64,000 bases of DNA from Anaerolineae bacterium (GCA_963675785.1 OY776562.1:1568001-1632000), one strand, 5' to 3'. Shown: positions 34,196-61,195, counted from the first letter of the stretch. A program made the numbers and translations. The notes: generated by a model from the letters alone, not told the origin.

Positions 34196-35152
34196 TCATA
34201 AGAATTCATCCTTGCGCCAAAATACCTCTTCTTTGAAAGCTTCGATGTCCTGGGGAGTATGAAATCTGTGAATCATACTATGACAGTTGGAACATAGGAC
34301 CGCGAAATCTTTATCTGGATCCAAAGATACTCTTTTCCCGGCAATTTCAGACAATGGTACAAGATGGTGAGCTTCGATGAATTGAACTCCGATTTCTCCA
34401 TAGAGATGAGAGAAATCAAAACCACATATCTCACAAATATAACCATGTATTCGTTTGACTTCTCTAACCAACCTCTGATTTCGCTCAATACGTTTGTGTA
34501 ATACAAACTTGGTTAGGTCCTCAACCTGTTGAGTGGCTATCTCCGATTCTTCCTCTTCTTGTACCTTGGTTGGCAACGCTTCTTTGTAGGCTAGGAGCTG
34601 ATACATTTGTAACATCAGTTCAAAATCAGCAAGCAGAACCTCATCAGAGGGCAAGGCACTCGTTGGATAGTATTTAGCAATGATGTTCCCTGCTTCATAG
34701 AGGTTTCCAAGCCCGTTTCCCGAACTTGTAGCCAGATAAATATGTTCAGAACCGAAATCTTGGGTATCTTCCAGTTGGAGATAATAATCTTTTGCTTTTA
34801 GCTGTAACACTTCTCGAGTTCCGGCTCTATAATTCCTTTGGATTCGTGTGACTCCCTGATTCAGGCTTAGATACACTCCTTGCATATCTTCACGAAACAG
34901 ATAGCAAGGGTAAAAACCATCTTGAGGAGTGTCAGTCACGAGAATATCGAGTACAGCCACCCAGGGGCATCGAGCCCAATTCCCCTGCCCAGCAGATCCC
35001 TTGACCACATAGCGGGGACCCAATGACGCCTCAATTGAAATATCGTCAGGCAACTTATGTCGAATCAGATCAGCCAATTCATGCCCTTTGAATTGTTCTC
35101 CCTGAGCTTGCATATAGCTGCGGAGAATCATTTTCAAATAATCAGAGAGCAT
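34196..35152 (-). CDS. DUF3578 (McrB-N-like) plus HNH endonuclease, putative type IV restriction enzyme
   Basis: KGSAGQGNWARCPW, YLSLNQG; CEICG..IEAHHLVP..LCSNCHSMIH; visibly AT-richer than flanks. Confidence 0.82.
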   Translation of the reverse strand: MLSDYLKMILRSYMQAQGEQFKGHELADLIRHKLPDDISIEASLGPRYVVKGSAGQGNWARCPWVAVLDILVTDTPQDGFYPCYLFREDMQGVYLSLNQGVTRIQRNYRAGTREVLQLKAKDYYLQLEDTQDFGSEHIYLATSSGNGLGNLYEAGNIIAKYYPTSALPSDEVLLADFELMLQMYQLLAYKEALPTKVQEEEESEIATQQVEDLTKFVLHKRIERNQRLVREVKRIHGYICEICGFDFSHLYGEIGVQFIEAHHLVPLSEIAGKRVSLDPDKDFAVLCSNCHSMIHRFHTPQDIEAFKEEVFWRKDEFL

Positions 35153-35391
35153 GTCAGCCTCCATTCACTAGATGTTTCGTAGGTTAAGCTACGAAACAGA
35201 CTCAATCCATATAGCTATCTAATGTACGTTTAGTCTACTCATGTTGACAGCATAAGTCACTAGCCCATAGCAGAAAGAGCCAAGATTAGTGCAATTTACA
35301 CCAAGAACCGTCCTCTTCTCCCCCCTTTTTGGACGCCTCCGCCTCTACAGGTAAAATACCACTCCTTGCCTGCAAACGGAGAGATGTATTC

Positions 35392-40075: not shown

Positions 40076-41071
40076 TTAGCAGCTATCCCTCTCAATCAGC
40101 CGCACTGGCAACGAACTACTCACCATCGGTTCGCCTGTGCGCAGGTGCTTGATGAGCGTCTCGACAGCACGCATACCAATATCAATGGCCGGCTGTTCGA
40201 TGGTAGTTAGAGGTGGGTTCGTCATGGCAGCAAAGGGCACACCGTCAAAGCCCATTACCGCCAGATCCTGGGGCACGCGCACGCCGTGCTGCTCAGCCCA
40301 ATCCAGGGTACGAATGGCTGGCGGATCCGACCAGCAAAAAATGGCCTCGGGCCGCTCGGGCAAAGACCAAAGCTGGGTCATCGCCTCATAGGCATCCGAA
40401 TTACCCTGGCGCGTCCACACCTCATACTCGGGCGGCAGTTCAAGCCCCGCGCTAGCCATGCCCTGCTTGAACCCTTCCAGGCGGTCTATAGCGGTCCCGA
40501 CATCCCTACTACCGGTAAACACGGCAATACGCTTGTAGCCCTTGCTGGCCAGATAGCGCGCCGCCATGAATCCACCCGTCACGTTGTCGCTGGTAATGCA
40601 ACAGATATCTGGACGAGGCGGATGGGTGCCGATGAGGATAAAAGGCACGTTGCGCTCGTAAAGGTGTTCCATCATATCGACGCCAGCACGGCCTGTACCC
40701 AGAATAAACCCGGCAACTTCGCCGCTGTTCACCAAAGAGAGGTACGTCTCGGGCCGTTTGGGGTCAACGTTGGAGAGCATAACGTTATAGTTAGAGTTCT
40801 GACATGCCTTGGCAATGCCCCGCAACAGCATCAACGGAAAGAATAAATCCCCAAAACGAGCATCGACGCTGCTGGGATCGACCACCGCAATGGTGCGGCT
40901 CTTGCGCGAAGCAAGTGAGCGAGCTGCTGCATTGGGATAATACCCCTGCTCCTCGATAACGCGCATCACCCGAACGCGCGTTTCTTCACGCACATCAGGA
41001 CTATTGTTGATCACACGCGACACGGTGGAACGAGATACACCGGCCAGTTCAGCTATTCTCTCAATGGTCAT
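40076..41071 (-). CDS. LacI family transcriptional regulator
   Basis: MTIERIAELAGVSRSTVSRVIN, YYPNAAARSL, VPQDLAVMGFD. Confidence 0.95.
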   Translation of the reverse strand: MTIERIAELAGVSRSTVSRVINNSPDVREETRVRVMRVIEEQGYYPNAAARSLASRKSRTIAVVDPSSVDARFGDLFFPLMLLRGIAKACQNSNYNVMLSNVDPKRPETYLSLVNSGEVAGFILGTGRAGVDMMEHLYERNVPFILIGTHPPRPDICCITSDNVTGGFMAARYLASKGYKRIAVFTGSRDVGTAIDRLEGFKQGMASAGLELPPEYEVWTRQGNSDAYEAMTQLWSLPERPEAIFCWSDPPAIRTLDWAEQHGVRVPQDLAVMGFDGVPFAAMTNPPLTTIEQPAIDIGMRAVETLIKHLRTGEPMVSSSLPVRLIERDSC

Positions 41072-41083
41072 CGACCCATCCTC

Positions 41084-41097
41084 TGGGAGCGTTTCCA
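41084..41097. promoter_or_regulatory. LacI-type operator
   Basis: TGGGAGCGTTTCCA, a CG-centred pseudo-palindrome just upstream of the LacI start. Confidence 0.7.
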
Positions 41098-41169
41098 ATT
41101 TGTACAAAACAGTGTAACCTTGCTGCAAAGCCACGTCAATATAAGCAATTTAGCTTAGGTTTTGGCTCA

Positions 41170-41352
41170 TTGCTATGTTATTTGAATAGCATTAGTATGT
41201 ATTTATGCTTATTGGAAGTTGCATAGCGCTATGCTCTCCGGATAAAAGAAATGGTGGGTATAGCACACGTTTCACAGTATTTTGTTTACTCTTCCGATTC
41301 AATCCTACCATCGGGGTAGTATGGAATTGGAGAATTCAAATGGAGGTGTGCC
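41170..41352 (+). promoter_or_regulatory. promoter plus type-A structured 5' leader, copy 1
   Basis: TTGCTA-N17-TAGTAT; hairpins GCTATGCTC/GGGTATAGC and TCCGATTC/GAATTGGA with inner CTACC-ATCGG-GGTAG. Confidence 0.65.
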
Positions 41353-43356
41353 ATGGAACGAATCTCTCGTCGCGAGTTCGTACGTGTGGGCTCTCTGGTA
41401 GCGGCCGCCACAGTGGCCACAGCCTGTACCCAGCCTACCGCAACACCCAAGCCTGCCGCTACCACTGCTCCCGCAGCAACCACAGCCGTTGAGGCCACTG
41501 CCACTACAGCCGTATCCGTTTATAGTGAAGCCCCCATGCTGGCCGATTTGGTTGCCTCTGGCGATCTGCCTTCTGTTGAAGAGCGTCTGCCAGAAAACCC
41601 CGATATCATGCCGGTTATTGAGATGGTCGGTCATTATGGCGGAACCATCCGCCGCGGGTTCAAGGGCGTCTCGGATAGCAATGGCCCCTCCAAGCTGGTT
41701 GGCAACAACCTAACCTGGTACAACCTGGATCTCACACTGCGCGCCAGCTTAGCTGAATCATGGGAAATCAATGACGACGCCAGCGAGTGGACCTTTTTCC
41801 TGCGCAGGGGCACCAAGTGGTCGGATGGTAGCGACTTTACCACCAAAGACTTTATGTACTATATGGAGCACCAGTTGCTGAATGAAAAACTCACCACTGC
41901 CCCGCCAACCAACTTTTCGACAGGCAATCCGCTCGTACTTAGTACCTGGACCGCCGCCGACGACTATACTATCACCATGAAATTCGCCAACCCCAACCCA
42001 CTTTTTGCCTTCCGCGTGGTCGGCCATCAGGGCCCTCCATTCCGGCCCAGCACATACATGCAACAGTACCACCCCGATTTTGGAGATGAAGCCACGTTGA
42101 CTGCACAGGCCGTTGAGGCTGGCTTTGATACCTGGGATAAGAACTATTTGGACCATGACAATTGGTACATGGATCCTGCCCGCCCTTGTATATATCCATG
42201 GATGCCAACGAACGCGCTATCCGAAGAACTATTTGTACTCGAGCGCAACCCTTATTTTTGGCAAGTGGATGAAACCGGCCAACAGCTCCCGTACGTCGAC
42301 AAAGTGACGCATCGCCTGTTTGAGACGCCCGACGTGTTCAACATGTGGATCGTCAACGGCGAAATCGACTATCAGGGCCGACATGTGGATAGCGGCAACA
42401 TCACCCTCTTTAAAGAAGCTGAAGAGAGCGGCGGATTCAATGTGGTTATGGGCCTCGATGCTATCCAGTTTGTTTTTACGCCCAATATCGCCTGTAAAGA
42501 CCTTCGCATGCGCGAGTTCCTGGGCGACACCGACGTACGTATTGCTTTTTCTCTGGCGGTCAACCGCGATGAGCTGAATGAGCTGGTTTACAACGGCATG
42601 GGCACGCCGCGTCAGAGCAGCCCGCTTAGCATCTCTCCACAAGCCTACCCCAAACAGGCCAATGCCTACATTGAATATGATCTTGAGCAAGCTAATGCGC
42701 TTCTCGATGGCGCTGGCTATGACACCAAGAATGCAGAAGGCTATCGCCTCTACAAAGATAGTTCGGGCGATACCATCTCAATCACCATTGAGGGCACATG
42801 GCAGGCTGGCTCCCAGGATGAGGATGCTATCCAGATGCTCGTCAAGTACTTTGGCGATGCTGGCGTCAAGTGCCAATACAAATATGTGGAGCGTTCGCTG
42901 TACACCGAGCACTATTTGGCGAACACGCAAGACGCCGTCTGCTGGCAAGCAGGCCGTAGCGTCATGCCTATCATCACACCGCAGACCTTTGTTGGTATGA
43001 TGCCCGATCGTCCGTGGGCTGGTGCCTGGGGCCTGTGGAAGATCAATAACAGTGACCCCAATGGTGAACAGCCTCCTGCGGGACACTGGATATGGGATAT
43101 CTGGGACATCTATGACAAAATTCTTGTCGAACCGGACGATGCCATGCGTACTACCCTGTTCTGGCAGATTCTCGACATCTGGGCCGAACAGCTACCAATG
43201 GTCGGTTATCTGGGAGAGTTCCCCAAGCTGATCATTGTCGCAAAGGAGCTGCGCAACTATGTTCCTGGCTTCCCCTTTGATGACATCACCAAGGATGAGC
43301 ATGTCCTCGGCCCCCAGACTCTGTTCTGGGAGAACCCCGAAGAACACACCTCCTGA
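41353..43356 (+). CDS. family 5 ABC substrate-binding lipoprotein (Tat), copy 1
   Basis: SRREF twin-Arg, lipobox TAC, LPSVEERLP, LAESWEIN..WTFFLRRGTKWSDG, RNPYFWQVD..QLPY. Confidence 0.93.
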   Translation: MERISRREFVRVGSLVAAATVATACTQPTATPKPAATTAPAATTAVEATATTAVSVYSEAPMLADLVASGDLPSVEERLPENPDIMPVIEMVGHYGGTIRRGFKGVSDSNGPSKLVGNNLTWYNLDLTLRASLAESWEINDDASEWTFFLRRGTKWSDGSDFTTKDFMYYMEHQLLNEKLTTAPPTNFSTGNPLVLSTWTAADDYTITMKFANPNPLFAFRVVGHQGPPFRPSTYMQQYHPDFGDEATLTAQAVEAGFDTWDKNYLDHDNWYMDPARPCIYPWMPTNALSEELFVLERNPYFWQVDETGQQLPYVDKVTHRLFETPDVFNMWIVNGEIDYQGRHVDSGNITLFKEAEESGGFNVVMGLDAIQFVFTPNIACKDLRMREFLGDTDVRIAFSLAVNRDELNELVYNGMGTPRQSSPLSISPQAYPKQANAYIEYDLEQANALLDGAGYDTKNAEGYRLYKDSSGDTISITIEGTWQAGSQDEDAIQMLVKYFGDAGVKCQYKYVERSLYTEHYLANTQDAVCWQAGRSVMPIITPQTFVGMMPDRPWAGAWGLWKINNSDPNGEQPPAGHWIWDIWDIYDKILVEPDDAMRTTLFWQILDIWAEQLPMVGYLGEFPKLIIVAKELRNYVPGFPFDDITKDEHVLGPQTLFWENPEEHTS

Positions 43357-43382
43357 TTGACTCTCCACAGATACGCACCAAC

Positions 43383-43411
43383 AGAGGGCGGACACAAAAG
43401 CCGCCCTCTTT
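43383..43411 (+). terminator. intrinsic terminator after copy 1
   Basis: AGAGGGCGG..CCGCCCTCT followed by T's. Confidence 0.75.
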
Positions 43412-43507
43412 CCTATGGCAATACGTTGTGTCCGCCCTTAAAAAGCAGTTCGCTATGCACCTACAATCACAATATCAGCAGAATAAGCAGAGATGCTCTG
43501 AGCATAG

Positions 43508-43712
43508 TGCCTATCTATTAGGTATTCTTGCCACATCCAATAGTTTGTGTTATCATCATTTGTGTCTATGTGGAACTGCATCGTGCTATACTCTCCTAAA
43601 GAGGAGGAGGCGGGTATAGAATCGTGCGTTTCGCGACATCTTGTTATTACTCTCCGTTTCACGTGCCATTGGGGTAATGTATGAATCGGAGAAAACAAAA
43701 TGGAGATGTGTA
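43508..43712 (+). promoter_or_regulatory. operator, promoter and type-A leader, copy 2
   Basis: TGCCTA-N5-TAGGTA, TTGCCA-N17-TATCAT, two hairpins. Confidence 0.68.
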
Positions 43713-45749
43713 ATGGAACGGATTTCTCGTCGTGAGTTCGTACGTGTGAGCTCTCTGATCACAGCTGCCACGGTTGCCGCAGCTTGTGCACAGCCTACTG
43801 CTACGCCCGAGCCCGCTGCTACCACGGCTCCTGCTGCTACTACGGCTCCCGTAGCAACCACAGCCCCTGGCGCAACTACAGCCGTTGAGGCTACTGCCAC
43901 CACTGCCGTATCCGTTTATGGCGAAGCCCCCATGCTGGCTGAGTTGGTTGCCTCTGGCGATCTTCCGCCCGTTGAAGAGCGTCTGCCAGAAAACCCTGAC
44001 GTCTGCCCTGTGGTAGAATCAGTTGGTAAGTACGGCGGCACCATTCGCCGCGGTTTCAAGGGCGTCTCGGACAAGTGGGGCCCCACCAAGATGGTGCGCA
44101 ATAACCTCACCGCTTTTGCCCTGGATATCTCTGTGCGTGCCAGCCTGGCCGAATCCTGGTCGATCAATGAGGACGGCAGCGAGTGGACCTTTAACCTGCG
44201 CAAGGGTACCAAGTGGTCCGATGGCAGTGACTTTACCAGCGAAAACTTTATGTGGTACTATGACTATGTGCTCTTGAACGAAACGCTAACGCCGAGCTTT
44301 TTGAGCCAGTTTGCTACCGGCTCGGAAGTGACACCCAGCGTTTGGACGGCACCTGATGACTATACCATCGTCTTTAGTTTCGCTGATCCGAACCCGCTTT
44401 TTGCCTACAAAGTAATCGGCCACCAGAACCCGGCCTTCCGCCCCAGTGAGTTCCTCAAGCAGTTTCACCCTGACTTTACTGAACAGGCCACACTGGATGC
44501 CCTGGCCACCGAAGAAGGCTTTTCTACCTGGGACCTGCTCTATGCAGACCGCGACTGGTGGTACATGGACGAGACCTGCCCATGCATCTTCCCTTGGAAG
44601 CCCGTCAATACCCTCGACAACGAGCTGTTCGTGATCGAGCGCAACCCTTACTTCTGGCAGGTTGACCCTGAAGGCAATCAGCTTCCTTACATCGACAAAG
44701 TCACCCACCGTTTGTTCGAGACCCCTGATGTCTTTAACATGTGGATCGTCAACGGCGAGATCGACTTCCAGTACCGTCACGTCGATTCCGGCAGCTACAC
44801 CCTCTACAAGGAAAGCGAAACATCCGGCGATTATATTGTCTCTAACAGCATCAGTGCTGGCCACAACGGCTTGACGATCAACCTGGCCTCCCAGAATCAG
44901 CAGCTACGCGACTTTTTTGGCACACTCGAAGTGCGCCAGGCCATGAACCTGGCCATGAACCGCGAAGAAATGAACGAGCTGGTTTTCGACGGTCAGGGTA
45001 CGCCGCGTCAGTACAGCCCGCTGAGCATGTCGCCCAGTGCCTATCCGGCACAGGCCAATTCGTTCATCGAGTATGACCCCGATCAGGCCAACGACCTGTT
45101 GGATGCCGCGGGTTATGACCAGAAAGACGCCGACGGCTATCGCACCTTCCCGGATGGCACAACGATCTCCCTGATCATCGAAGGTACTGATCAGTCCGGA
45201 ACAACTGGCGAAGATGCCACCCTGCTCAAGGTGAGTTATCTCGAGGCCGTAGGTATCAAGGCTCAGTACAAATACAATGAGCGCTCGCTCTATACCGAGC
45301 ACTATGAGTCCAACATGGTTGAGGCTTCCTCTTGGTTTGGTGATCGCACCGTCCTGCCCATCGTCACACCGTCCATCTTTGATGGCACGACGACTGACCG
45401 CCCGTGGGCCGGCGCCTGGGGCCTATGGCGAAACAATCACGATGATCCCAACGGCGAAGAACCCCCTGCGGATCATTGGATCTGGACCATCTGGAACGCT
45501 GTGGACGCCATGAACATTGAACCAGATGAAGACACACGCAACGAGCTGTTCCGTACTGGTGTCTTGGATGTCTGGAAGGATCAACTTCCCAGCATCGGCT
45601 GCTTGGGCGAGTTCCCCTCCTACACCATCGTCAAGAACGGCCTAGTCAACTACCATGCCGGGTTCCCCAATGATGATATCGTCAAGGACGAGCATCTTCA
45701 GGGCCCGCAAACCCTTTACTGGGAGAACCCCGAAGAGCATACTTCCTGA
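43713..45749 (+). CDS. family 5 ABC substrate-binding lipoprotein (Tat), copy 2
   Basis: Paralog of copy 1; start MERISRREF after GGAG. Confidence 0.93.
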   Translation: MERISRREFVRVSSLITAATVAAACAQPTATPEPAATTAPAATTAPVATTAPGATTAVEATATTAVSVYGEAPMLAELVASGDLPPVEERLPENPDVCPVVESVGKYGGTIRRGFKGVSDKWGPTKMVRNNLTAFALDISVRASLAESWSINEDGSEWTFNLRKGTKWSDGSDFTSENFMWYYDYVLLNETLTPSFLSQFATGSEVTPSVWTAPDDYTIVFSFADPNPLFAYKVIGHQNPAFRPSEFLKQFHPDFTEQATLDALATEEGFSTWDLLYADRDWWYMDETCPCIFPWKPVNTLDNELFVIERNPYFWQVDPEGNQLPYIDKVTHRLFETPDVFNMWIVNGEIDFQYRHVDSGSYTLYKESETSGDYIVSNSISAGHNGLTINLASQNQQLRDFFGTLEVRQAMNLAMNREEMNELVFDGQGTPRQYSPLSMSPSAYPAQANSFIEYDPDQANDLLDAAGYDQKDADGYRTFPDGTTISLIIEGTDQSGTTGEDATLLKVSYLEAVGIKAQYKYNERSLYTEHYESNMVEASSWFGDRTVLPIVTPSIFDGTTTDRPWAGAWGLWRNNHDDPNGEEPPADHWIWTIWNAVDAMNIEPDEDTRNELFRTGVLDVWKDQLPSIGCLGEFPSYTIVKNGLVNYHAGFPNDDIVKDEHLQGPQTLYWENPEEHTS

Positions 45750-45774
45750 TCGATTCGATCTAAACATTTACCAA

Positions 45775-45804
45775 AAAGAGGGCGGCCATAGGGCCGCCCT
45801 CTTT
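45775..45804 (+). terminator. intrinsic terminator after copy 2
   Basis: AAAGAGGGCGGCC-atag-GGCCGCCCTCTTT. Confidence 0.8.
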
Positions 45805-45947
45805 CCTTTGTCGCAATTCAAGGCGCGATCCTTGAGAAACGCGTTATCTGCGGCCTGGGTCAGCACGCTTGCTCTCAACATCCGATTAATTGGCCACATC
45901 AGCTCCCCCTGATTACACTATCGATAGAATAATGCCTATAGCAATTA

Positions 45948-46154
45948 TGCCTATATAGTAGGTATTATTGCTATATGAAATATTTTGTGATAACATAGGT
46001 TATGCTTATGCGGAACTGCATTGTGCTATGCTCTCTCAAAAGGAGAAGACGCGCATAGTGCCGTGTGTTCCACAGCATTCTTGTTCCGGTCTTCCGATCC
46101 AGTTCTGCCGTCGGGGCAGCGTACAGATCGGAAATCACAGAATGGAGATGTGTG
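45948..46154 (+). promoter_or_regulatory. operator, promoter and type-A leader, copy 3
   Basis: TGCCTA-N5-TAGGTA, TTGCTA-N17-TAACAT, TTCCGATC/GATCGGAA with inner CTGCC-GTCGG-GGCAG. Confidence 0.68.
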
Positions 46155-48212
46155 ATGGAACGGATCTCTCGTCGTGAGTTCGTACGCGTGAGCTCTCTGG
46201 TAACGGCCGCTACGGTAGCCGCAGCCTGCGCACAACCGACAGCCACGCCTGAGCCCACTACTGCTCCAGCCGCAACCACTGCACCTGCGGCAACCACTGC
46301 ACCCGCAGCAACCACTGCACCCGCAGCAACTAGTGCCCCCGCAGCCACAGCCACCGATGCCCCTGCTGTTTCCATGTATAGCGAGGCACCAATGTTGGCC
46401 GAGTTGGTTGCATCTGGTGATCTGCCCCCTGTTGATGAGCGACTTCCGGAGAATCCCGAAGTTGTGCCCGTCATCGAGTCTGTAGGCAAGTACGGCGGCA
46501 CCATCCGCCGTGGTTTCAAGGGCGTTTCGGACAAGTGGGGCCCCACCAAAATGGTGCGCCAGGGTATGACTTGCTTTAACTTTGACCTCACGGTGCGCGC
46601 CAGCTTTGCCGAATCCTACGAACTCAATGAGGATGGCAGCGAGTGGACTTGGCACCTGCGTAAGGGCGTCAGATGGTCCGATGGCTCCTTTGTCACCAGT
46701 GCAGACTTTATTTGGTACTATGAGTACGTACTGTTGAACGAAACCCTGACCCCAACCGTACCGAGCCAATTCTCAACTGGTAACCCCGCAGTGTTGAGCA
46801 CCTGGGCAGCGCCCGACGACTATACCATCGTCATGACCTTTGCACACCCCAAGCCATTCCTGGCTTATGAGTGCGTCGGACATTCAAACCCGCCTTACCG
46901 CCCCAGCGAATACTTGAAGCAGTTCCATCCCGATTTTGTGGACATGGACACCCTCACGGCTTTGGCAGAAGCAGAAGGCTTTTCAACGTGGGACCTGCTC
47001 TTTGCTGACCGTGACTGGTGGTACATGGATGAGACCTGTCCCTGCATCTTCCCTTGGAAGCCACTGAACACTCTCGACAACGAGCTATTCGCCATGGAGC
47101 GCAACCCCTACTACTGGCAGGTTGACTCTGAAGGTCAGCAGTTACCCTATATCGACAGGGTTACTCACCGCCTGTTCGAGACGCCAGACGTGTTCAACAT
47201 GTGGATCGTCAACGGCGAAATCGACTTTCAGGGGCGCCATGTCGACAAGGGCAACTATACTCTCTTCAAAGAGAGTGAAGCGGAAGGTGACTATCGGGTC
47301 GCCACGGGTGTAAGCGCCAGCCATACCTGTTTTACACCCAACATCGCTTGCCAAGACCCGAAACTTCGTGAATTCTTGGGCAATACCGATGTGCGCATAG
47401 CCTTTTCTCTCGCTATCAACCGAGACGAGATGAACGACCTCGTGTTTGACGGCCAGGGCACACCGCGCCAGTACAGCCCGCTGAGCATGTCTCCGCAGGC
47501 ATATCCCGCCCAGGCTAATGCCTACATCGATTTCGACCCCGATGAGGCCAATGCTCTGCTCGACGGCGCCGGCTTTGACGCCAAAGATGCAGAAGGCTAT
47601 CGCCTCTTCAAGGACGGCTCGGGCACCATCTCGCTCACCATCGAAGGCACCGCTGAGGCCGGAACGGCCGATGAGGACGCCATCCTGTTGATGGTCAAGT
47701 ACTTTGGCGATGTGGGTATCAAGTGCCAGTACAAGTACAATGAACGATCGCTCTACACTGAGCACTATGAGTCCAACCAGGTCGATTCCACTTCTTGGGG
47801 CGGCGACCGTACGGTTATGCCCATCATCACGCCGACCATCTTTAACGGCACAACGATGGACCGCCCGTGGTCTGGTGCATACGGCCTATGGAAGAATGAC
47901 AACGACGACCCCAACGGCGAAGAGCCTCCTGCGGACCACTGGATCTGGACAATCTGGAATGCTGTGGATGACATCAACATTGATCCGGACGAAGACAGCC
48001 GCAACGAGCGCTTCAGAACCGACGTTCTGGACATCTGGAAGGAAGAACTGCCCATGATCGGTTGTTTGGGCGAGTTCCCAGCGCTTATCATCGTCAAGAA
48101 TGGCCTGATCAACTATGTTGACGGCTTCCCCAACGATGACAAGACCAAGGACGAGCACGTTCAGCAGAGCCAGACACTCTACTGGGAAAACCCAGAAGAC
48201 CACACGGCCTAG
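46155..48212 (+). CDS. family 5 ABC substrate-binding lipoprotein (Tat), copy 3
   Basis: Paralog with the longest PAATTA linker. Confidence 0.93.
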   Translation: MERISRREFVRVSSLVTAATVAAACAQPTATPEPTTAPAATTAPAATTAPAATTAPAATSAPAATATDAPAVSMYSEAPMLAELVASGDLPPVDERLPENPEVVPVIESVGKYGGTIRRGFKGVSDKWGPTKMVRQGMTCFNFDLTVRASFAESYELNEDGSEWTWHLRKGVRWSDGSFVTSADFIWYYEYVLLNETLTPTVPSQFSTGNPAVLSTWAAPDDYTIVMTFAHPKPFLAYECVGHSNPPYRPSEYLKQFHPDFVDMDTLTALAEAEGFSTWDLLFADRDWWYMDETCPCIFPWKPLNTLDNELFAMERNPYYWQVDSEGQQLPYIDRVTHRLFETPDVFNMWIVNGEIDFQGRHVDKGNYTLFKESEAEGDYRVATGVSASHTCFTPNIACQDPKLREFLGNTDVRIAFSLAINRDEMNDLVFDGQGTPRQYSPLSMSPQAYPAQANAYIDFDPDEANALLDGAGFDAKDAEGYRLFKDGSGTISLTIEGTAEAGTADEDAILLMVKYFGDVGIKCQYKYNERSLYTEHYESNQVDSTSWGGDRTVMPIITPTIFNGTTMDRPWSGAYGLWKNDNDDPNGEEPPADHWIWTIWNAVDDINIDPDEDSRNERFRTDVLDIWKEELPMIGCLGEFPALIIVKNGLINYVDGFPNDDKTKDEHVQQSQTLYWENPEDHTA
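46256..46347 (+). repeat. 18-bp coding tandem repeat (PAATTA)
   Basis: About 5 degenerate GCAACCACTGCACCCGCA-like units. Confidence 0.8.
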
Positions 48213-48242
48213 CGAACGTCATTTTGCACCAACATGCTTAAA

Positions 48243-48276
48243 AGAGGGCGACCATAAGGATCGCCCTCTCCTTTTT
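48243..48276 (+). terminator. intrinsic terminator after copy 3
   Basis: AGAGGGCGA..TCGCCCTCT followed by a T tract. Confidence 0.75.
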
Positions 48277-48392
48277 ATGTCAAGCCACCTATAGAGCCAT
48301 AATATAGTTTTGCCCTATAAACTATATTATACAAACTTGACAAGCAATATCATCAATAATGAAGAATGTATTGCTAGATATTGCGGTACAAC

Positions 48393-48591
48393 TTGCCAAC
48401 AGCATATACGCGTACTAGTATGTCATTATGCCTAGTTGAAATTGCACAGTACGGTAATCTCCAACCCGGCAGACGAAAAGGGAGGGGTTCGGCGCGTGCT
48501 CGGCATTCAACGGCTTTTCGTTCGTGCCTCCCGATCAGCGCCGTCACCAATGGGGTGATGCGCACATCGGAGACAAAGGATGGAGACCAGA
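48393..48591 (+). promoter_or_regulatory. promoter plus type-A leader, copy 4 (divergent sequence, same fold)
   Basis: TTGCCA-N17-TAGTAT; GCC-ta-GTTGAA/TTCAAC-GGC; CGTCACC-AATGG-GGTGATG. Confidence 0.62.
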
Positions 48592-50640
48592 ATGGAAAGA
48601 ATCTCTCGTCGTGACTTTGTGCGTGTAAGCACACTCGTAACTGCTGCCACAGTGGCTGCTGCTTGCACCCAACCTACTTCTACCCCCGCACCTACGGCCA
48701 CTACAGCGGCAGAGGCCACTACAGCGGCTACTGCGACATCTGCAGCAGCTGCCACGTCCGCACCCGAAGCAACAGCGACACCCGAACCCACAACTGCTAC
48801 TTCTGTATACAGTGAAGCGCCTTCCCTTGCCGAGTTGGTTGCTTCTGGCGATTTGCCCCCCGTCGAAGAGCGTTTGCCAGAAAATCCCGATGTGCAAGAA
48901 GTTCCAGATGTGATCGGCATTTATGGCGGCACCTGGCGACGCGGTTTCAAGGGCGTTTCTGACAAGTGGGGCCCCACCAAGATGGTGCGCAACAACCTCA
49001 CCTGGTACAACCTGGATCTCAGCGTACGTGCTTCCATCGCCGAATCATGGGAAATCAACGATGATGCCAGCGAATGGACCTTTAACCTACGCAAAGGCAT
49101 GAAATGGTCCGATGGCAGCGCCTTTACCAGCGAAAATTTTATGTGGTACTATGAGTACGATCTGCTGAATGAAGAACTGACCACAACGCCACTCAGCCAG
49201 TTCTCCACCGGAGATCCATTGGTGATGAGCACCTGGTCGGCACCCGACGACTATACCATCGTGATGACCTTTGCTGACCCGAACCCGCTGCTCGCCTACA
49301 ACGTCATCGGCCATCAGAACCCTCCCTTCCGCCCCAGCGAGTATATGAAGCAGTACCACATTGACTTTGTCGATGCGGACACGCTGAATGCCATGGCTGT
49401 AGAAGAAGGTTTCGAGACCTGGGTTGCCCTATACGATGACCGCGATTGGTGGTACATGGACGAGAATTGTCCGTGCATCTTCCCTTGGAAGCCAATGAAC
49501 ACCCTCGATAACGAGCTTTTTGTCATGGAGCGCAACCCTTACTTTTGGCAAGTCGATGCTGAAGGTAAACAACTACCCTACATTGACAAGGTGACTCACC
49601 GTCTGTACGAATCGACCGACGTTTTTAACATGTGGATTCTCAATGGTGAGATCGACTGCCAATCCCGTGGGGTTAATCTCAGCGATTTTACGCTCTTCAA
49701 AGAGAGTGAAGAGAGCGGAGATTTCAGCGTTATGACGGGTATCTCTGCCGGCCACTTTACCTTTACGCCCAACAACGCCTGCCAAGATACACGCCTGCGC
49801 GAGTTCTTTGGCGATGTCGACGTGCGCAAGGCCTTTTCTTTGGCCGCAAACCGCGAAGAGATCAACGAGATGGTCTATGATGGCCAGGGTACACCGCGCC
49901 AATACAGCCCGCTAAGTGTTTCGCCACAGTACTATCCCGAGCTATCTAATGCTTACATCGAGTACGATCCCGATGAAGCGAATTCCCTACTGGATGGCGC
50001 CGGCTATGACGCAAAAGATGCCGACGGTTATCGCACTTATAAAGATGGTTCTGGCGAAACCATCTCCCTAATCATCGAAGGTACAACCGAGGTTGGTCAG
50101 GATGACAACATCTTGATGCTGGTTTCATACTTTGACGCAGTAGGCATCAAGTGCCAGTACAAGTACGTTGAGCGTTCACTCTATACCGAGCACTATGAGG
50201 CCAACCAGGTAGATTGCACCTGTTGGGGCGGCGATCGCACACTTTTACCCATCGTCACGCCCACTATCTTTACCGGTGAGACATCAGACCGTCCGTGGGC
50301 CGGAGCCTGGGGCCTCTGGAAGAACGACAATGCTGACCCCAACGGTGAAGAGCCACCTGCAGATCATTGGATCTGGACCATCTGGAACACCATGAGCGAG
50401 ATCAATGTCGAACCGGATGATGCCACTCGCACCGCCATGTTCAAATCCGGTGTTCTGGATATCTGGAAGGAACAGCTACCCATGATCGGTTACCTGGGTG
50501 AGTTCATTTCGCTGGTCATTGTCAAGAACGGTATGCGTAACTATCTCAGTGGTTACCCCAACGACGACAATACCAAGAGCGAGCACATTCTGCCGAGTCA
50601 AACCATCTTCTGGGAAGACCCAAAAGAGCACACCTCCTAG
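48592..50640 (+). CDS. family 5 ABC substrate-binding lipoprotein (Tat), copy 4
   Basis: Paralog; MERISRRDF. Confidence 0.93.
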   Translation: MERISRRDFVRVSTLVTAATVAAACTQPTSTPAPTATTAAEATTAATATSAAAATSAPEATATPEPTTATSVYSEAPSLAELVASGDLPPVEERLPENPDVQEVPDVIGIYGGTWRRGFKGVSDKWGPTKMVRNNLTWYNLDLSVRASIAESWEINDDASEWTFNLRKGMKWSDGSAFTSENFMWYYEYDLLNEELTTTPLSQFSTGDPLVMSTWSAPDDYTIVMTFADPNPLLAYNVIGHQNPPFRPSEYMKQYHIDFVDADTLNAMAVEEGFETWVALYDDRDWWYMDENCPCIFPWKPMNTLDNELFVMERNPYFWQVDAEGKQLPYIDKVTHRLYESTDVFNMWILNGEIDCQSRGVNLSDFTLFKESEESGDFSVMTGISAGHFTFTPNNACQDTRLREFFGDVDVRKAFSLAANREEINEMVYDGQGTPRQYSPLSVSPQYYPELSNAYIEYDPDEANSLLDGAGYDAKDADGYRTYKDGSGETISLIIEGTTEVGQDDNILMLVSYFDAVGIKCQYKYVERSLYTEHYEANQVDCTCWGGDRTLLPIVTPTIFTGETSDRPWAGAWGLWKNDNADPNGEEPPADHWIWTIWNTMSEINVEPDDATRTAMFKSGVLDIWKEQLPMIGYLGEFISLVIVKNGMRNYLSGYPNDDNTKSEHILPSQTIFWEDPKEHTS

Positions 50641-50655: not shown

Positions 50656-50692
50656 AGTATAAAGGGCGATCCTAAGGATCGCCCTTTATACT
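50656..50692 (+). terminator. terminator-like hairpin after copy 4
   Basis: AGTATAAAGGGCGATCC-taa-GGATCGCCCTTTATACT. Confidence 0.8.
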
Positions 50693-55903: not shown

Positions 55904-55938
55904 TTTGCCTACCTTCTTTTATAATCACGGTTTATGCG

Positions 55939-56082
55939 AGCATTCTAGTACGCAAATCACGCATGTCTAGCATCCGGCAACAGATATTTTTTCCATACAG
56001 ACTGACCAAGCATTCGAGTACGCAAATTACACATATCTAGCTTGACAAGATGACTGAAAAACGATGTGACTTTTGCGTATTC
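55939..56082. repeat. 33-bp direct repeat (2 copies) plus inverted partial copy, candidate operator set
   Basis: 55939-55971 and 56009-56041 match at 29/33; inverted copy at 56063-56082 shares the TACGCAAA core. Confidence 0.7.
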
Positions 56083-56283: not shown

Positions 56284-56422
56284 TTGACACTCTAGGCCAT
56301 GTGCTTAGAATCAAGGCATATTTCCAGGGACTGGCATCAACGCGTTGCCCGCTCAGATAGTGAACGTAATAGTCTGTTTGGAAAAAAAGTTGATAGTTGG
56401 CCATAGTTTGAGGGAGTTGGAA
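56284..56422 (+). promoter_or_regulatory. promoter plus type-B leader, copy 6
   Basis: TTGACA-N16-TAGAAT; CTGGCATC-N6-TTGCCCGC; TCTGTTTGGA; AGTTGATAGTTGGCC. Confidence 0.62.
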
Positions 56423-58437
56423 ATGCAAAAAGTTACACGTCGAGACTTTGTAAGGGTTGCAGCACTAACAGGCGCCGCCACTGTGGCAGCCGCCTGTGCG
56501 CAACCAACCGCTACACCTGAACCCGCAGCTACCACCGCTCCAGAGGCTACAACTGCCGCACCTTCGACCGAACCCACAACCGCCCCTGTAATATCCGCGT
56601 ACAGTGAGGCCCCCATGTTGGCAGAGTTGGTCGCCACTGGTGATCTGCCCCCTGTCGAAGAGCGTCTCCCAGAGAATCCTGATGTTATGCCGGTTGTTGA
56701 ATCAGTCGGCGTCTACGGCGGCACCATCCGCCGCGGTTTCAAGGGTGTCTCGGACAAGTGGGGACCCACCAAGATGGTGCGCAATTGCCTTACCTGGTAC
56801 AACCTAGATCTAACCGTGCGTGCCAGTTTGGCAGAGTCCTGGAGATCAATGAGGACGCCAGCGAGTGGACTTGGCACCTTCGTCCAGGCACCAAGTGGTC
56901 TGATGGTAGCAACTTTACCAGCGCAGACTTTACCTGGTATTACCAGTACCATCTGCTGAACACAGACATCACCCCGGCACCACTAAGTCAGTTCTCCACG
57001 GGTAACCCGCTGGTCTGGTCCGAGTGGACAGCTCCTGACGACTATACCGTCGTTATGACCTTTGCCGACCCGAACCCGCTCTTTTCCTTCAAGGTGATCG
57101 GCCATCAGAATCCGCCCTTCCGCCCCAGCGAGTACGCCAAGCAATATCATCCCGATTTTGTGGACGAAGAAACTCTCAATGCCATGGCGGTAGAAGAGGG
57201 CTTCCAGACCTGGGCCGACCTTTACACCGACCGTGACTGGTGGTACATGGACGAGACGCGTCCTTGTATCTTCCCTTGGAAGCCGAGCAACACACTCGAT
57301 AACGAGTTGTTCGTCATGGAGCGCAACCCCTATTTTTGGCAGGTGGACCCCGAAGGCAATCAGTTGCCCTACGTTGACAAAGTAACTCACCGCCTGTTTG
57401 AAACACCTGACGTGTTCAACATGTGGATCGTCAACGGCGAAATCGACTTTCAGTATCGCCATGTCGATAAGGGTAACTTTACGCTCTTTAAGGAAAGCGA
57501 AGAGTCCGGCGCCTATACCGTCTCTATCGGCACAGTAGCCAACCACTTTTGCTTTACGCCCAACCTCGCCAGCCAGGACGAGCGCTTCCGCGCCTTTTTT
57601 GGCAGCTTAGATGTTCGCAAGGCCCTTTCTCTGGCTGTGAACCGTGACGAGCTTAACGAACTGGTTTACGACGGCCTAGGAACACCCCGTCAGTACAGCC
57701 CGCTAAGCATGTCTCCGAATGCATATCCTGAGCAGGCCGACGCCTACATCGAGTACGATCCTGAGACGGCTGCAGAGCTCCTCGATGGCGCAGGTTACGA
57801 TGCCAAGGACGCTGAAGGCTATCGCGTCTTTAACGATGGCTCCAATGAGACCATCTCGATGACCATTGAGAGCACCTTTGAAGCCGGCTCGCCGGACGAA
57901 GACGCTGTTCAGCTCTTGATCAAGTACTTTGGTGATGTGGGCATCAAGGCGCAGTACAAGTACGTTGAGCGCTCGCTTTATACCGAGCACTATGAATCCA
58001 ACCAAGTTATTGCCACTTCTTGGGGTGGAGACCGTACAGTTATGCCTACCGTTACCCCTGACATCTTTGAGGGTTCTACGGCAGATCGCCCATGGGCTGG
58101 TGCTTGGACTTTGTGGAAGCTCAATCCTACGGATCCGAACGGCGAAGAGCCCCCTGCGGATCATTGGATTTGGACCATCTGGAACGCGATGGATGCCGTC
58201 AAGGTCGAGACAGACGAAGAAACTCGTAATGAGCTGTTCAGAACAGGCGTCTTGGACGTTTGGAAGGAACAGTTGCCCATGATCGGTTACCTGGGTGAAT
58301 TCCCGGCGTTGACGATTCTCAAGGAAGGCCTGCACAACTATCTGCCGGGCTTCCCCAACGACGACATCACCAAGGACGAGCACCTTCAGGGCCCCCAGAC
58401 ACTTTACTGGGATACCCCCGAAGAACACACCTCCTGA
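56423..58437 (+). pseudogene. family 5 SBP copy 6, frameshifted (or sequencing error)
   Basis: TCC TGG AGA TCA at about 56841 versus TGG GAG ATC in copy 7: one G missing. Both halves are otherwise intact. Confidence 0.8.
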
Positions 58438-58697: not shown

Positions 58698-58837
58698 TTG
58701 ACAAATAAGTGATAACACCTACAATCACTAGGATGTTTGTTAGGGACTGGCATCGGCTTGTTGCCCGCCAGAAGAGCAAAATGATAGTCTGTTTGGACAA
58801 AAAGTTGATAGTCGGTCATAGTTTGAGGGAGTTTGAG
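58698..58837 (+). promoter_or_regulatory. promoter plus type-B leader, copy 7
   Basis: TTGACA-N16-TACAAT and the same leader blocks as copy 6. Confidence 0.62.
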
Positions 58838-61060: not shown

Positions 61061-61195
61061 TTGACATCTAGGCCAGTGTACCTAGAATCGGCCTCATACA
61101 CGTGTGGCTGGCATCGGCATTTTGCCCGCCTGATAGTGACTGAATGATCTGTTCGGACAAGAGTTGATAGCCGGCCCAAGTTAGAGGAGATCAAG
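61061..61195 (+). promoter_or_regulatory. promoter plus type-B leader, copy 8
   Basis: TTGACA-N16-TAGAAT and the same leader blocks. Confidence 0.62.

Follow-up and report, generated by a model that had tools for sequence, protein, structure and literature searches.

Several bacterial mRNAs owe their stability to elements at their 5' ends, among them the 5' untranslated region (UTR) of Escherichia coli ompA, the aprE leader and ermC of Bacillus subtilis, and the STAB-SD element of Bacillus thuringiensis cry3A. In mRNA decay of the Bacillus type, 5' stem-loops, ribosomes bound at strong Shine-Dalgarno (SD) sequences and SD-like or polypurine leader tracts all stabilise transcripts, and in the cggR-gapA transcript of B. 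subtilis RNase Y cuts 5' of a stem-loop, which thereby comes to lie at the 5' end of the stable downstream mRNA. The ermC 5' stabilizer is treated in a review (PMC3997798). Here we describe an RNA leader, designated type A, which precedes four tandem genes encoding solute-binding proteins (SBPs) in a 64,000-nucleotide stretch of DNA from an Anaerolineae bacterium (GCA_963675785.1, OY776562.1). This whole stretch (G000:C1:1568001-1632000), hereafter the window, lies within a 3.22-Mb single-contig genome, and positions are counted from its first nucleotide unless the contig is named. By analogy, the leader seems to resemble most closely the 5' stabilisers and processing leaders of organisms with RNase J and RNase Y. 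The reading that we favour, tentatively and at a little less than an even chance, is that of a cis-acting 5' UTR, specific to this lineage, whose role is mRNA protection and the tuning of translation in a host possessing both nucleases.

Like the known 5' stabilisers, the type A leader has a hairpin directly at the predicted 5' end or adjacent to it and a strong SD together with extra SD-like GGAG tracts; its host has RNase J and RNase Y, and the genes that it precedes encode abundant extracytoplasmic proteins. Unlike them, its first hairpin is much longer (75-88 nt) and more conserved in sequence than a simple stabiliser requires, its SD-like tracts are paired in the model, and no sequence relationship to any of them was seen. 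The likeness to cggR-gapA lies in a fifth, partial copy outside the window, where a U-rich single strand, a stable hairpin and an SD stand between two genes without a promoter-like or terminator-like site; unlike in cggR-gapA, cleavage in the type A linker is a proposal.

Four tandem units of one build were found between 41135 and 50700, each consisting of a promoter-like site (TTGCYA-N17-TAnnAT), a 148-164-nt leader that ends in a GGAG ribosome-binding site (RBS) 8-9 nt 5' of the ATG, an SBP gene and a strong terminator-like hairpin. The original prediction had placed four related leaders here, and all four were confirmed and are homologous, their alignment having 237 columns with a mean column identity of 69%. 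Two covariance models were used, R1 covering the whole leader and R2, built from five sequences (the four leaders and the partial copy), covering the linker, the second hairpin and the SD. The leaders and their scores are as follows:

41205-41352, plus strand: type A leader 1, with hairpin 1 at ~41206-41279, a U-rich linker, hairpin 2 at ~41293-41333 and GGAG at 41342-41345 (R1 130.9 bits, R2 70.9 bits)
43563-43712, plus strand: type A leader 2, with hairpin 1 at ~43563-43638, hairpin 2 at ~43652-43691 and GGAG at 43702-43705 (R1 153 bits, R2 82.8 bits)
46002-46154, plus strand: type A leader 3, with hairpin 1 at ~46003-46077, hairpin 2 at ~46092-46133 and GGAG at 46144-46147 (R1 158.5 bits, R2 89.6 bits)
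48428-48591, plus strand: type A leader 4, with hairpin 1 at ~48429-48515 and a longer apex, hairpin 2 at ~48529-48572 and GGAG at 48582-48585 (R1 121.8 bits, R2 69.5 bits)

In the common fold, hairpin 1 is long and irregular and begins with the predicted 5' end; a U-rich linker connects it to hairpin 2, which has two tiers and is capped by an RNYGG pentaloop (AUCGG, AUUGG, GUCGG and AAUGG in the four leaders). The elements named from the sequence earlier, i.e. the individual stems, an invariant UA bulge, a purine-rich apex, the U-rich linker and the outer and inner stems of hairpin 2, were each readable in the sequences, and the same architecture was recovered by RNAalifold with RIBOSUM scoring. 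A TCTCC motif attributed to hairpin 1 is present in three of the four leaders, leader 3 having TCTCT instead. Folded singly, leaders 2, 3 and 4 agree in both the long irregular hairpin 1 and the two-tier hairpin 2. In leader 1 folded alone, the base of hairpin 1 is retained together with its GGAA/UUUC and apical GCUAUGC/GUAUAGC helices, and the middle of hairpin 1 is poorly paired. An inverted repeat at 43651-43661 and 43682-43692, corresponding to hairpin 2 of leader 2, was detected independently. The apex of hairpin 1 differs in length by more than 10 nt between copies, and hairpin 2 ends 8-12 nt 5' of the GGAG.

In all four copies hairpin 1 starts at the predicted +1 or +2, i.e. 5-6 nt past the -10 hexamer, the transcription start itself being a prediction; in the folding model, this position would match the geometry of 5'-terminal protective stem-loops. 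The leaders begin 6, 6, 5 and 6 nt past the -10 hexamer (leaders 1-4), slightly nearer than the 6-7 nt first proposed. The base of hairpin 1 directly adjoins a U-rich run in every leader (UUUUGUUU, UCUUGUUAUU, UUCUUGUU and UUUUCGUU). Leader 1 carries in addition a perfect 14-bp palindrome with a central CG, GCATAGCGCTATGC, at 41221-41234 (about +17). A conserved leader peptide was considered and rejected: in the frame of the 5' AUG, leader 4 has a stop at codon 4 and leader 3 one at codon 19, and the second AUG is missing from leaders 1 and 4.

On the four-sequence alignment the 34 consensus pairs gave standard pairs in 89.6% of 134 cells, and 11 of the 34 pairs were changed on both sides. The observed percentage paired, double-change count and covariation score were reached by none of 500 partner shuffles, the observed number of further pair types by 59 of 500, and sliding the partners by 1-3 columns left 33.6-61.5% of cells paired. 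Because the structure had been derived from the same four sequences, a stricter control was added in which 200 column-shuffled alignments were each refolded. The consensus-fold energy corresponded to z = -4.07 for the four whole leaders and to z = -5.97 for the hairpin-2 region of the five copies, and in neither case was any of the 200 column shuffles as low; a shared structure is therefore supported. In the inner stem of hairpin 2, four of five pairs were changed on both sides among the five copies, including the loop-closing pair (C-G to U-A), and 96% of cells were paired. The pentaloop has A at position 1 in four of five copies and G at position 4 in all five. Invariant columns made up 25 of 68 paired positions, compared with 7 of 40 unpaired positions in hairpin 1 and 4 of 24 in hairpin 2; this concentration in the stems, together with the variable length of the apex, would fit a structural role. 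The cells include 16 G:U and five A:C combinations, in a structure derived with G:U allowed, which is a weak hint that the RNA is read from the plus strand. The shared fold is well supported, whereas with four paralogues the covariation count does not reach significance. The earlier claim that pairing is kept while sequence changes is supported as regards the shared fold, and not as regards the number of compensatory changes, which did not significantly exceed that in column shuffles.

Comparison with the surrounding DNA shows constraint on the leaders. Pairs of leaders are 51-71% identical with gaps excluded (45-69% with gaps counted), and fourfold-degenerate sites of the adjoining genes are 38-48% identical (221-256 sites per pair), where composition alone gives 30%, so that silent sites are near saturation. 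DNA 5' of the promoters aligns at just 12-26%. The leader therefore evolves more slowly than neutral sequence of the duplicated unit, and by this comparison the leaders are under purifying selection. Taken with the folding results, we consider the evidence for structure and constraint to be solid.

The SD region was analysed for pairing that might affect initiation. The 3' end of the 16S rRNA is canonical (...GAUCACCUCCUUUCU), and GGAG occurs 2, 4, 2 and 3 times in leaders 1-4, against ~0.4 expected per leader from the genome rate of 0.0025 per nt. The probability that the SD is unpaired was 0.03-0.29, compared with a median of 0.28 and an interquartile range of 0.19-0.47 in a background of 150 genes drawn from 492 candidates; unusual SD sequestration was rejected on this ground. 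Default RNAalifold pairs UCUCC with the GGAGA of the SD; this alternative costs 3.9, 12.4, 12.2 and 5.7 kcal/mol over the minimum free energy (MFE) in leaders 1-4, so that a UCUCC:SD switch is possible and energetically disfavoured. The U-rich linker is able to pair with the AUGGAG/SD region in all five copies (87.8% of cells), in a weak helix that varies almost only from U:A to U:G, with one of its 10 pairs changed on both sides. As to a kissing or pseudoknot partner of the hairpin-2 loop, none was seen by eye to covary, no formal search having been made.

The fifth copy was found by R1 at G000:C1:1430529-1430669 on the minus strand, ~137 kb before the window (33.7 bits, E = 1.5e-4), where an earlier nhmmer search had already pointed (E = 0.0015). 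R2 matched G000:C1:1430529-1430608 on the same strand with 70.6 bits; the five copies scored 69.5-89.6 bits with this model, and the next match in the genome scored 15.4 bits. The copy retains solely the 3' half of the leader, i.e. the UUUUGUU linker, hairpin 2 and a GGAGG SD, and has no hairpin 1. Its hairpin 2 has an outer stem CUUCUGAU/AUCAGAAG, an inner stem GCUACU/AGUAGC and the loop AUUGG. The gene 3' of it encodes another SBP_bac_5 paralogue, with the N-terminus MRQITRREF, and the copy lies in a gap of ~120 nt after the stop codon of a co-oriented gene:

G000:C1:1430650-1432086 (L035:1622-3058), minus strand: gene for a 478-aa protein upstream of the fifth copy, apparently in one operon with the SBP gene

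The 478-aa protein has no Pfam match, and neither a promoter-like nor a terminator-like site was found in the gap. With neither hairpin 1 nor a promoter-like site found at this copy, hairpin 2 and the linker thus form a separable module that needs no adjacent transcription start.

No known riboswitch had been recognised in the leaders, and Rfam bore this out, with no match in any of them. Rfam 15 (4227 models) gave no match in the whole 64-kb window at gathering thresholds, and at E <= 10 over 41100-48700 (7.6 kb) it gave nine weak matches, all at terminators or in coding sequence and none in a leader. The wider genome searches proposed with the original prediction found no relatives beyond this genome (R1, 42 same-family genomes; R2, 151 same-class genomes). 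R1 matched one of the 42 same-family genomes, namely the source genome itself, and R2 matched three of the 151 same-class and three of 40 same-family genomes, the source genome included in each. The four foreign R2 matches (E = 0.08-0.24) were on inspection unrelated, none lying 5' of an SBP gene; their contexts were a cytidylate-kinase-like start (judged by the N-terminus), a small zinc-ribbon open reading frame (ORF), a terminator-like site and a place with no gene start. BLASTn with leader 3 against 60 relatives gave a best foreign match of E = 0.006 over 27 nt. The source genome is the sole member of its genus among the genomes compared.

We also searched 160 loci of SBP relatives, 80 on genome contigs with both models and 80 from metagenomes with R2. 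The genome contigs came from Anaerolineae, Caldilineae and Roseiflexus-type metagenome-assembled genomes, with SBP relatives 33-58% identical in the best segment. On these, R2 gave no match and R1 two at chance level (E = 0.23 and 3.2), of which one lies between SBP and permease genes and the other (11.2 bits) at an SBP start. In the metagenome loci (SBPs <= 59% identical) R2 gave two matches (E = 0.89 and 6.4), neither 5' of an SBP start. Near-identical strains occur in public DNA (contigs of four runs): among the differences listed (40 of 613) none is inside a leader, the nearest being at 41152, and one low-depth strain contig over leader 2 differs at two positions. Literature searches brought up nothing on a leader of this kind. 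The type A leader is thus uncatalogued, belongs to no tested RNA family and is very narrowly distributed, with five copies in one genome.

The other signals of the array were located as listed below. All four promoter-like sites were read by eye, and two of them (units 2 and 4) were also picked up by a consensus scan.

40076-41134, minus strand: LacI-family regulator gene, divergent to unit 1 (Pfam LacI, Peripla_BP_1 and Peripla_BP_3)
41170-41175 and 41193-41198, plus strand: promoter-like site of unit 1 (TTGCTA, N17, TAGTAT), read from the sequence at the same alignment position as the others and absent from the scan list
41353-43356, plus strand: SBP gene 1, 667 aa, Tat-type MERISRREF N-terminus, PF00496 E = 1.1e-53
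43383-43413, plus strand: intrinsic terminator-like hairpin after gene 1, AGAGGGCGG...CCGCCCTCT with a T-rich tail, read from the sequence
43528-43556, plus strand: promoter-like site of unit 2 (TTGCCA-N17-TATCAT, its -10 preceded by TG), found by the scan with 10/12 matches
43713-45749, plus strand: SBP gene 2, 678 aa, SBP_bac_5, PF00496 E = 5e-58
45777-45810, plus strand: intrinsic terminator-like hairpin after gene 2, read from the sequence, with weak Rfam matches of small RNA (sRNA) or terminator type
45968-45973 and 45991-45996, plus strand: promoter-like site of unit 3 (TTGCTA, N17, TAACAT), read from the sequence and aligned with the other three
46155-48212, plus strand: SBP gene 3, 685 aa, SBP_bac_5, PF00496 E = 2.8e-55
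48243-48276, plus strand: intrinsic terminator-like hairpin after gene 3, read from the sequence
48393-48421, plus strand: promoter-like site of unit 4 (TTGCCA-N17-TAGTAT), found by the scan with 9/12 matches
48592-50640, plus strand: SBP gene 4, 682 aa, SBP_bac_5, PF00496 E = 3.2e-62
50656-50692, plus strand: terminator-like 17-bp hairpin after gene 4, listed by the scan on the minus strand, the hairpin being palindromic

The terminator-like hairpins share the form AGAGGGCG...CGCCCTCT followed by T's and are homologous after all of the first four genes. With its own promoter, leader, coding sequence and terminator, each a predicted signal, every gene of the array is apparently monocistronic. 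A palindrome, CCTA-N5-TAGGTA, lies directly 5' of the -35 element in units 2 and 3 (43510-43524 and 45950-45964); it has four matches on both strands compared with 1.13 expected, a number reached in 2 of 100 shuffles, and is a candidate transcription-factor site.

The four proteins are 667-685 aa long, begin with MERISRR(E/D)F as part of a Tat-type signal, share 65-75% identity pairwise and all match Pfam SBP_bac_5 (PF00496; E = 1e-53 to 3e-62). SBP_bac_5 comprises the family-5 solute-binding proteins of ABC importers, whose ligands are peptides, nickel or oligosaccharides. There are no permease genes between the units. Neighbouring genes encode a GH88-like protein, two esterases, a heparinase II/III-like protein, an alginate-lyase-like protein and a GH62/43-like protein. 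A carbohydrate or oligosaccharide role of the SBPs is therefore plausible, inferred solely from these glycoside-hydrolase-like, lyase-like and esterase genes and the LacI-family gene, the last of which (40076-41134) is a candidate regulator of the array at the DNA level.

The genome holds ~17 paralogous loci of this SBP (18 tblastn segments), and most of the other paralogues are each preceded by a promoter and by a long structured leader that is unrelated in sequence, which suggests that the long leaders may be a generic expression device and not one aptamer. Eight orphan family-5 SBP genes stand in a row at 41353-63232 without permease or ATPase genes between them. Leaders of a second, unrelated type, B, were seen at 56330-56422, 58740-58837 and 61100-61195, 5' of three further SBP_bac_5 paralogues (MQKVTRR(D/E)F); they have the core GGCUGGCAUCGGC..UUGCCCGCC and a closing helix just 5' of the SD, each copy following a TTGACA-type promoter. 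The paralogue behind the first of them (56423-58437) is split by a frameshift near 56821-56845, with two tblastn segments in different frames and overlapping ORFs at 56345-56959 and 56758-58437, owing either to pseudogene formation or to an error in the assembly. In the intergenic region that separates the heparinase-like gene from this first type B unit, a direct repeat of ~35 nt (GCATTCNAGTACGCAAATNACNCAT.TCTAGC) occurs twice, at 55937-55975 and 56008-56046, ~70 nt apart. Near the carbohydrate cluster, a gene at 34196-35164 on the minus strand encodes an MrcB-like N-terminal domain and an HNH endonuclease domain, possibly a restriction or defence nuclease.

The original prediction had left the leader's function between a riboswitch, a protein-binding leader and a 5' stabiliser. 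The conserved, selected 5' UTR structure was upheld, and the evidence leans towards a stabiliser that also tunes translation and away from a riboswitch. The host encodes two RNase J genes (80.4 and 69.3 bits) and one RNase Y gene (144.1 bits), and no RNase E/G match was found in its genome (94.8% complete). Under an mRNA-protecting role, two separable modules would jointly set the yield of binding protein per mRNA. Hairpin 1, at the predicted start, would act as a 5'-terminal stem-loop guarding against 5'-end-dependent decay by RNase J. The U-rich UYUUGUU linker and hairpin 2 would form a second module, a protective 5' structure for the coding part that also organises the ribosome-binding region. 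The single-stranded linker could serve as an entry site for the ribosome or S1, or as an RNase Y cleavage site just 5' of a stem-loop; at the fifth copy, an endonuclease cut in the linker would release an SBP mRNA headed by its own protective hairpin. The leader would probably be constitutive rather than signal-responsive. Binding proteins are usually required in excess over other transporter components.

Several observations weigh against this interpretation. Since all copies are paralogues of one genome, the conservation looks greater than it is through common descent and, possibly, gene conversion; conversion among the tandem copies, if it occurred, would nevertheless not be expected to preserve the leader and erase the spacer. 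The four leaders contain 12 compensatory pairs compared with 9.1 +/- 2.5 in column shuffles, 33 of 200 of which reach 12, and the count for the five-copy hairpin-2 region was reached by 13 of 200. Single-sequence MFE z-scores are modest (-1.42, -2.33, -2.99 and -1.01 for leaders 1-4). SD accessibility is ordinary, with no special translational effect evident, and the extra SD-like GGAG tracts are base-paired in the model, so binding of the 30S subunit to them is doubtful. Finally, sequence is conserved beyond what a pure stabiliser needs in GGAAYUGCAY..GCUAURCUCUCC, in the invariant UA bulge and in the pentaloop GG; such blocks give a hint of sequence-specific recognition.

This last point leads to a trans-acting factor, either an RNA-binding protein or an sRNA, that would bind hairpin 1 and/or the RNYGG loop and alter translation or mRNA stability, an alternative that we regard as possible and somewhat unlikely. 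The UA bulge, UGCA, UCUC and the loop GG followed by G are conserved beyond the need of pairing, the hairpin-2 loop has A1 (4/5) and G4 (5/5), and one common site would co-regulate the four tandem genes. One ANTAR-domain protein is encoded in the genome. ANTAR targets consist of two tandem stem-loops, each with a hexaloop that has A at position 1 and G at position 4; like them, the type A leader has two hairpins in the 5' UTR near the RBS, and its hairpin-2 loop combines A1 and G4 in four of five copies. Unlike them, it has no hexaloops: the hairpin-2 loop is 5 nt in 5/5 copies, the apex of hairpin 1 is long and variable, the two hairpins are dissimilar, and the ANTAR gene is ~1 Mb distant. 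Moreover, no gene for an RNA-binding regulator adjoins the array, whose neighbour is a DNA-binding LacI-type protein, genes for CsrA and BglG-type CAT_RBD proteins were not found in the genome, and inspection by eye, with no formal search, revealed no complementary partner covarying with the loop.

The LacI-family gene divergent from unit 1 raises an explanation at the DNA level, in which the conserved block from ~+10 to +35 would be an operator for this or another repressor, the rest of the leader residual homology and the RNA fold incidental. LacI-family operators are palindromes of 14-20 bp with a central CG, present at each regulated promoter, and repressor operators typically lie just 3' of the start. 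The palindrome GCATAGCGCTATGC has this position and is perfect in leader 1, with two mismatches in leader 3 and three in leader 2, but leader 4 has no such palindrome, and the window holds five matches at <=3 mismatches where 4.35 are expected, 46 of 100 shuffles reaching five. An operator also leaves unexplained the pairing of arms 60-85 nt apart (the basal and GGAAC/GUUCC helices), the promoterless, operon-internal hairpin 2 and the consensus-fold z-scores. We consider this explanation unlikely as an account of the leader; the palindrome at 41221-41234 may nevertheless be an operator superimposed on the RNA element, though it is not statistically enriched.

It is distinctly improbable that the type A leader is a signal-sensing riboswitch or RNA-protein switch that couples a battery of oligosaccharide-binding proteins to a carbohydrate signal, with hairpin 2 and its RNYGG loop as a portable sensor employed within an operon as well. 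For a riboswitch in the strict sense, in which a small molecule, e.g. an oligosaccharide or its breakdown product, toggles between SD-open and SD-closed states with UCUCC or the linker as anti-SD, we put the probability lower still. A long structured 5' UTR ahead of transporter genes, the lack of a match to any known family, the complementarity of UCUCC to GGAGA in three of four leaders (paired by default RNAalifold) and the pairing of the linker with the SD region in all five copies would be in keeping with it. However, conservation lies in the stems rather than in junctions or loops, where the unpaired nucleotides of a ligand-binding core would be expected to be kept across lineages, the apex varies in length, and the fold contains neither a multi-helix junction nor a pseudoknot. 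The UCUCC:SD alternative lies 3.9-12.4 kcal/mol above the MFE, the linker:SD helix has almost only U:A/U:G variation with a double change in 1/10 pairs, and the SD is as accessible as that of other genes. The element was, furthermore, not found in the 41 other same-family genomes, the 150 other same-class genomes or the 160 SBP loci searched with at least one model, and other paralogues use unrelated leaders. The linker pairing recalls FourU and ROSE thermometers and other SD-sequestering leaders in that every copy has a U-rich run as a possible pairing partner of the AUGGAG region; unlike in these, the pairing is weak, consisting mostly of U:G and U:A, SD accessibility does not fall below background and no Rfam thermometer matched. 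With T-box leaders (RF00230) the type A leader has in common a long irregular first hairpin before genes of a peptide/oligosaccharide-binding family and a UGG-containing loop in the second hairpin; it differs in giving no RF00230 match at E <= 10 in the 7.6 kb and in having no recognisable specifier loop or T-box sequence.

Least probable of all is an attenuator, in which hairpin 1 and the U-rich tract directly following its base in 4/4 leaders would form a leader terminator or pause site to be overcome for expression, as the basal helix has only 3-5 A/U-rich pairs set off by a bulge, the loop greatly exceeds that of intrinsic terminators, in which a G+C-rich stem with a short loop runs straight into a U tract, hairpin 1 was not reported by the terminator scan for any leader (a small local stem in leader 2 was), nothing 5' of hairpin 1 is able to form an antiterminator, and the fifth copy conserves the U-rich element while lacking hairpin 1.

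The reach of the element is small, with five copies in one genome and no relatives found. Carbohydrate-sensing riboswitches other than glmS are, to our knowledge, unknown, and for this reason sugar sensing, if proved, would be of real interest. If the favoured reading of an mRNA-protecting, translation-tuning 5' UTR is correct, the type A leader would represent an uncatalogued leader RNA family in a little-studied lineage of the Chloroflexota, a phylum for which we know of no such mRNA-protecting element, with modular parts (the 5' hairpin, and the linker plus the hairpin before the RBS) that were duplicated along with the genes. It would provide a compact test case for mRNA protection by a 5' UTR in a phylum that has both RNase J and RNase Y, and would show how such organisms may boost the output of binding-protein genes for ABC uptake.

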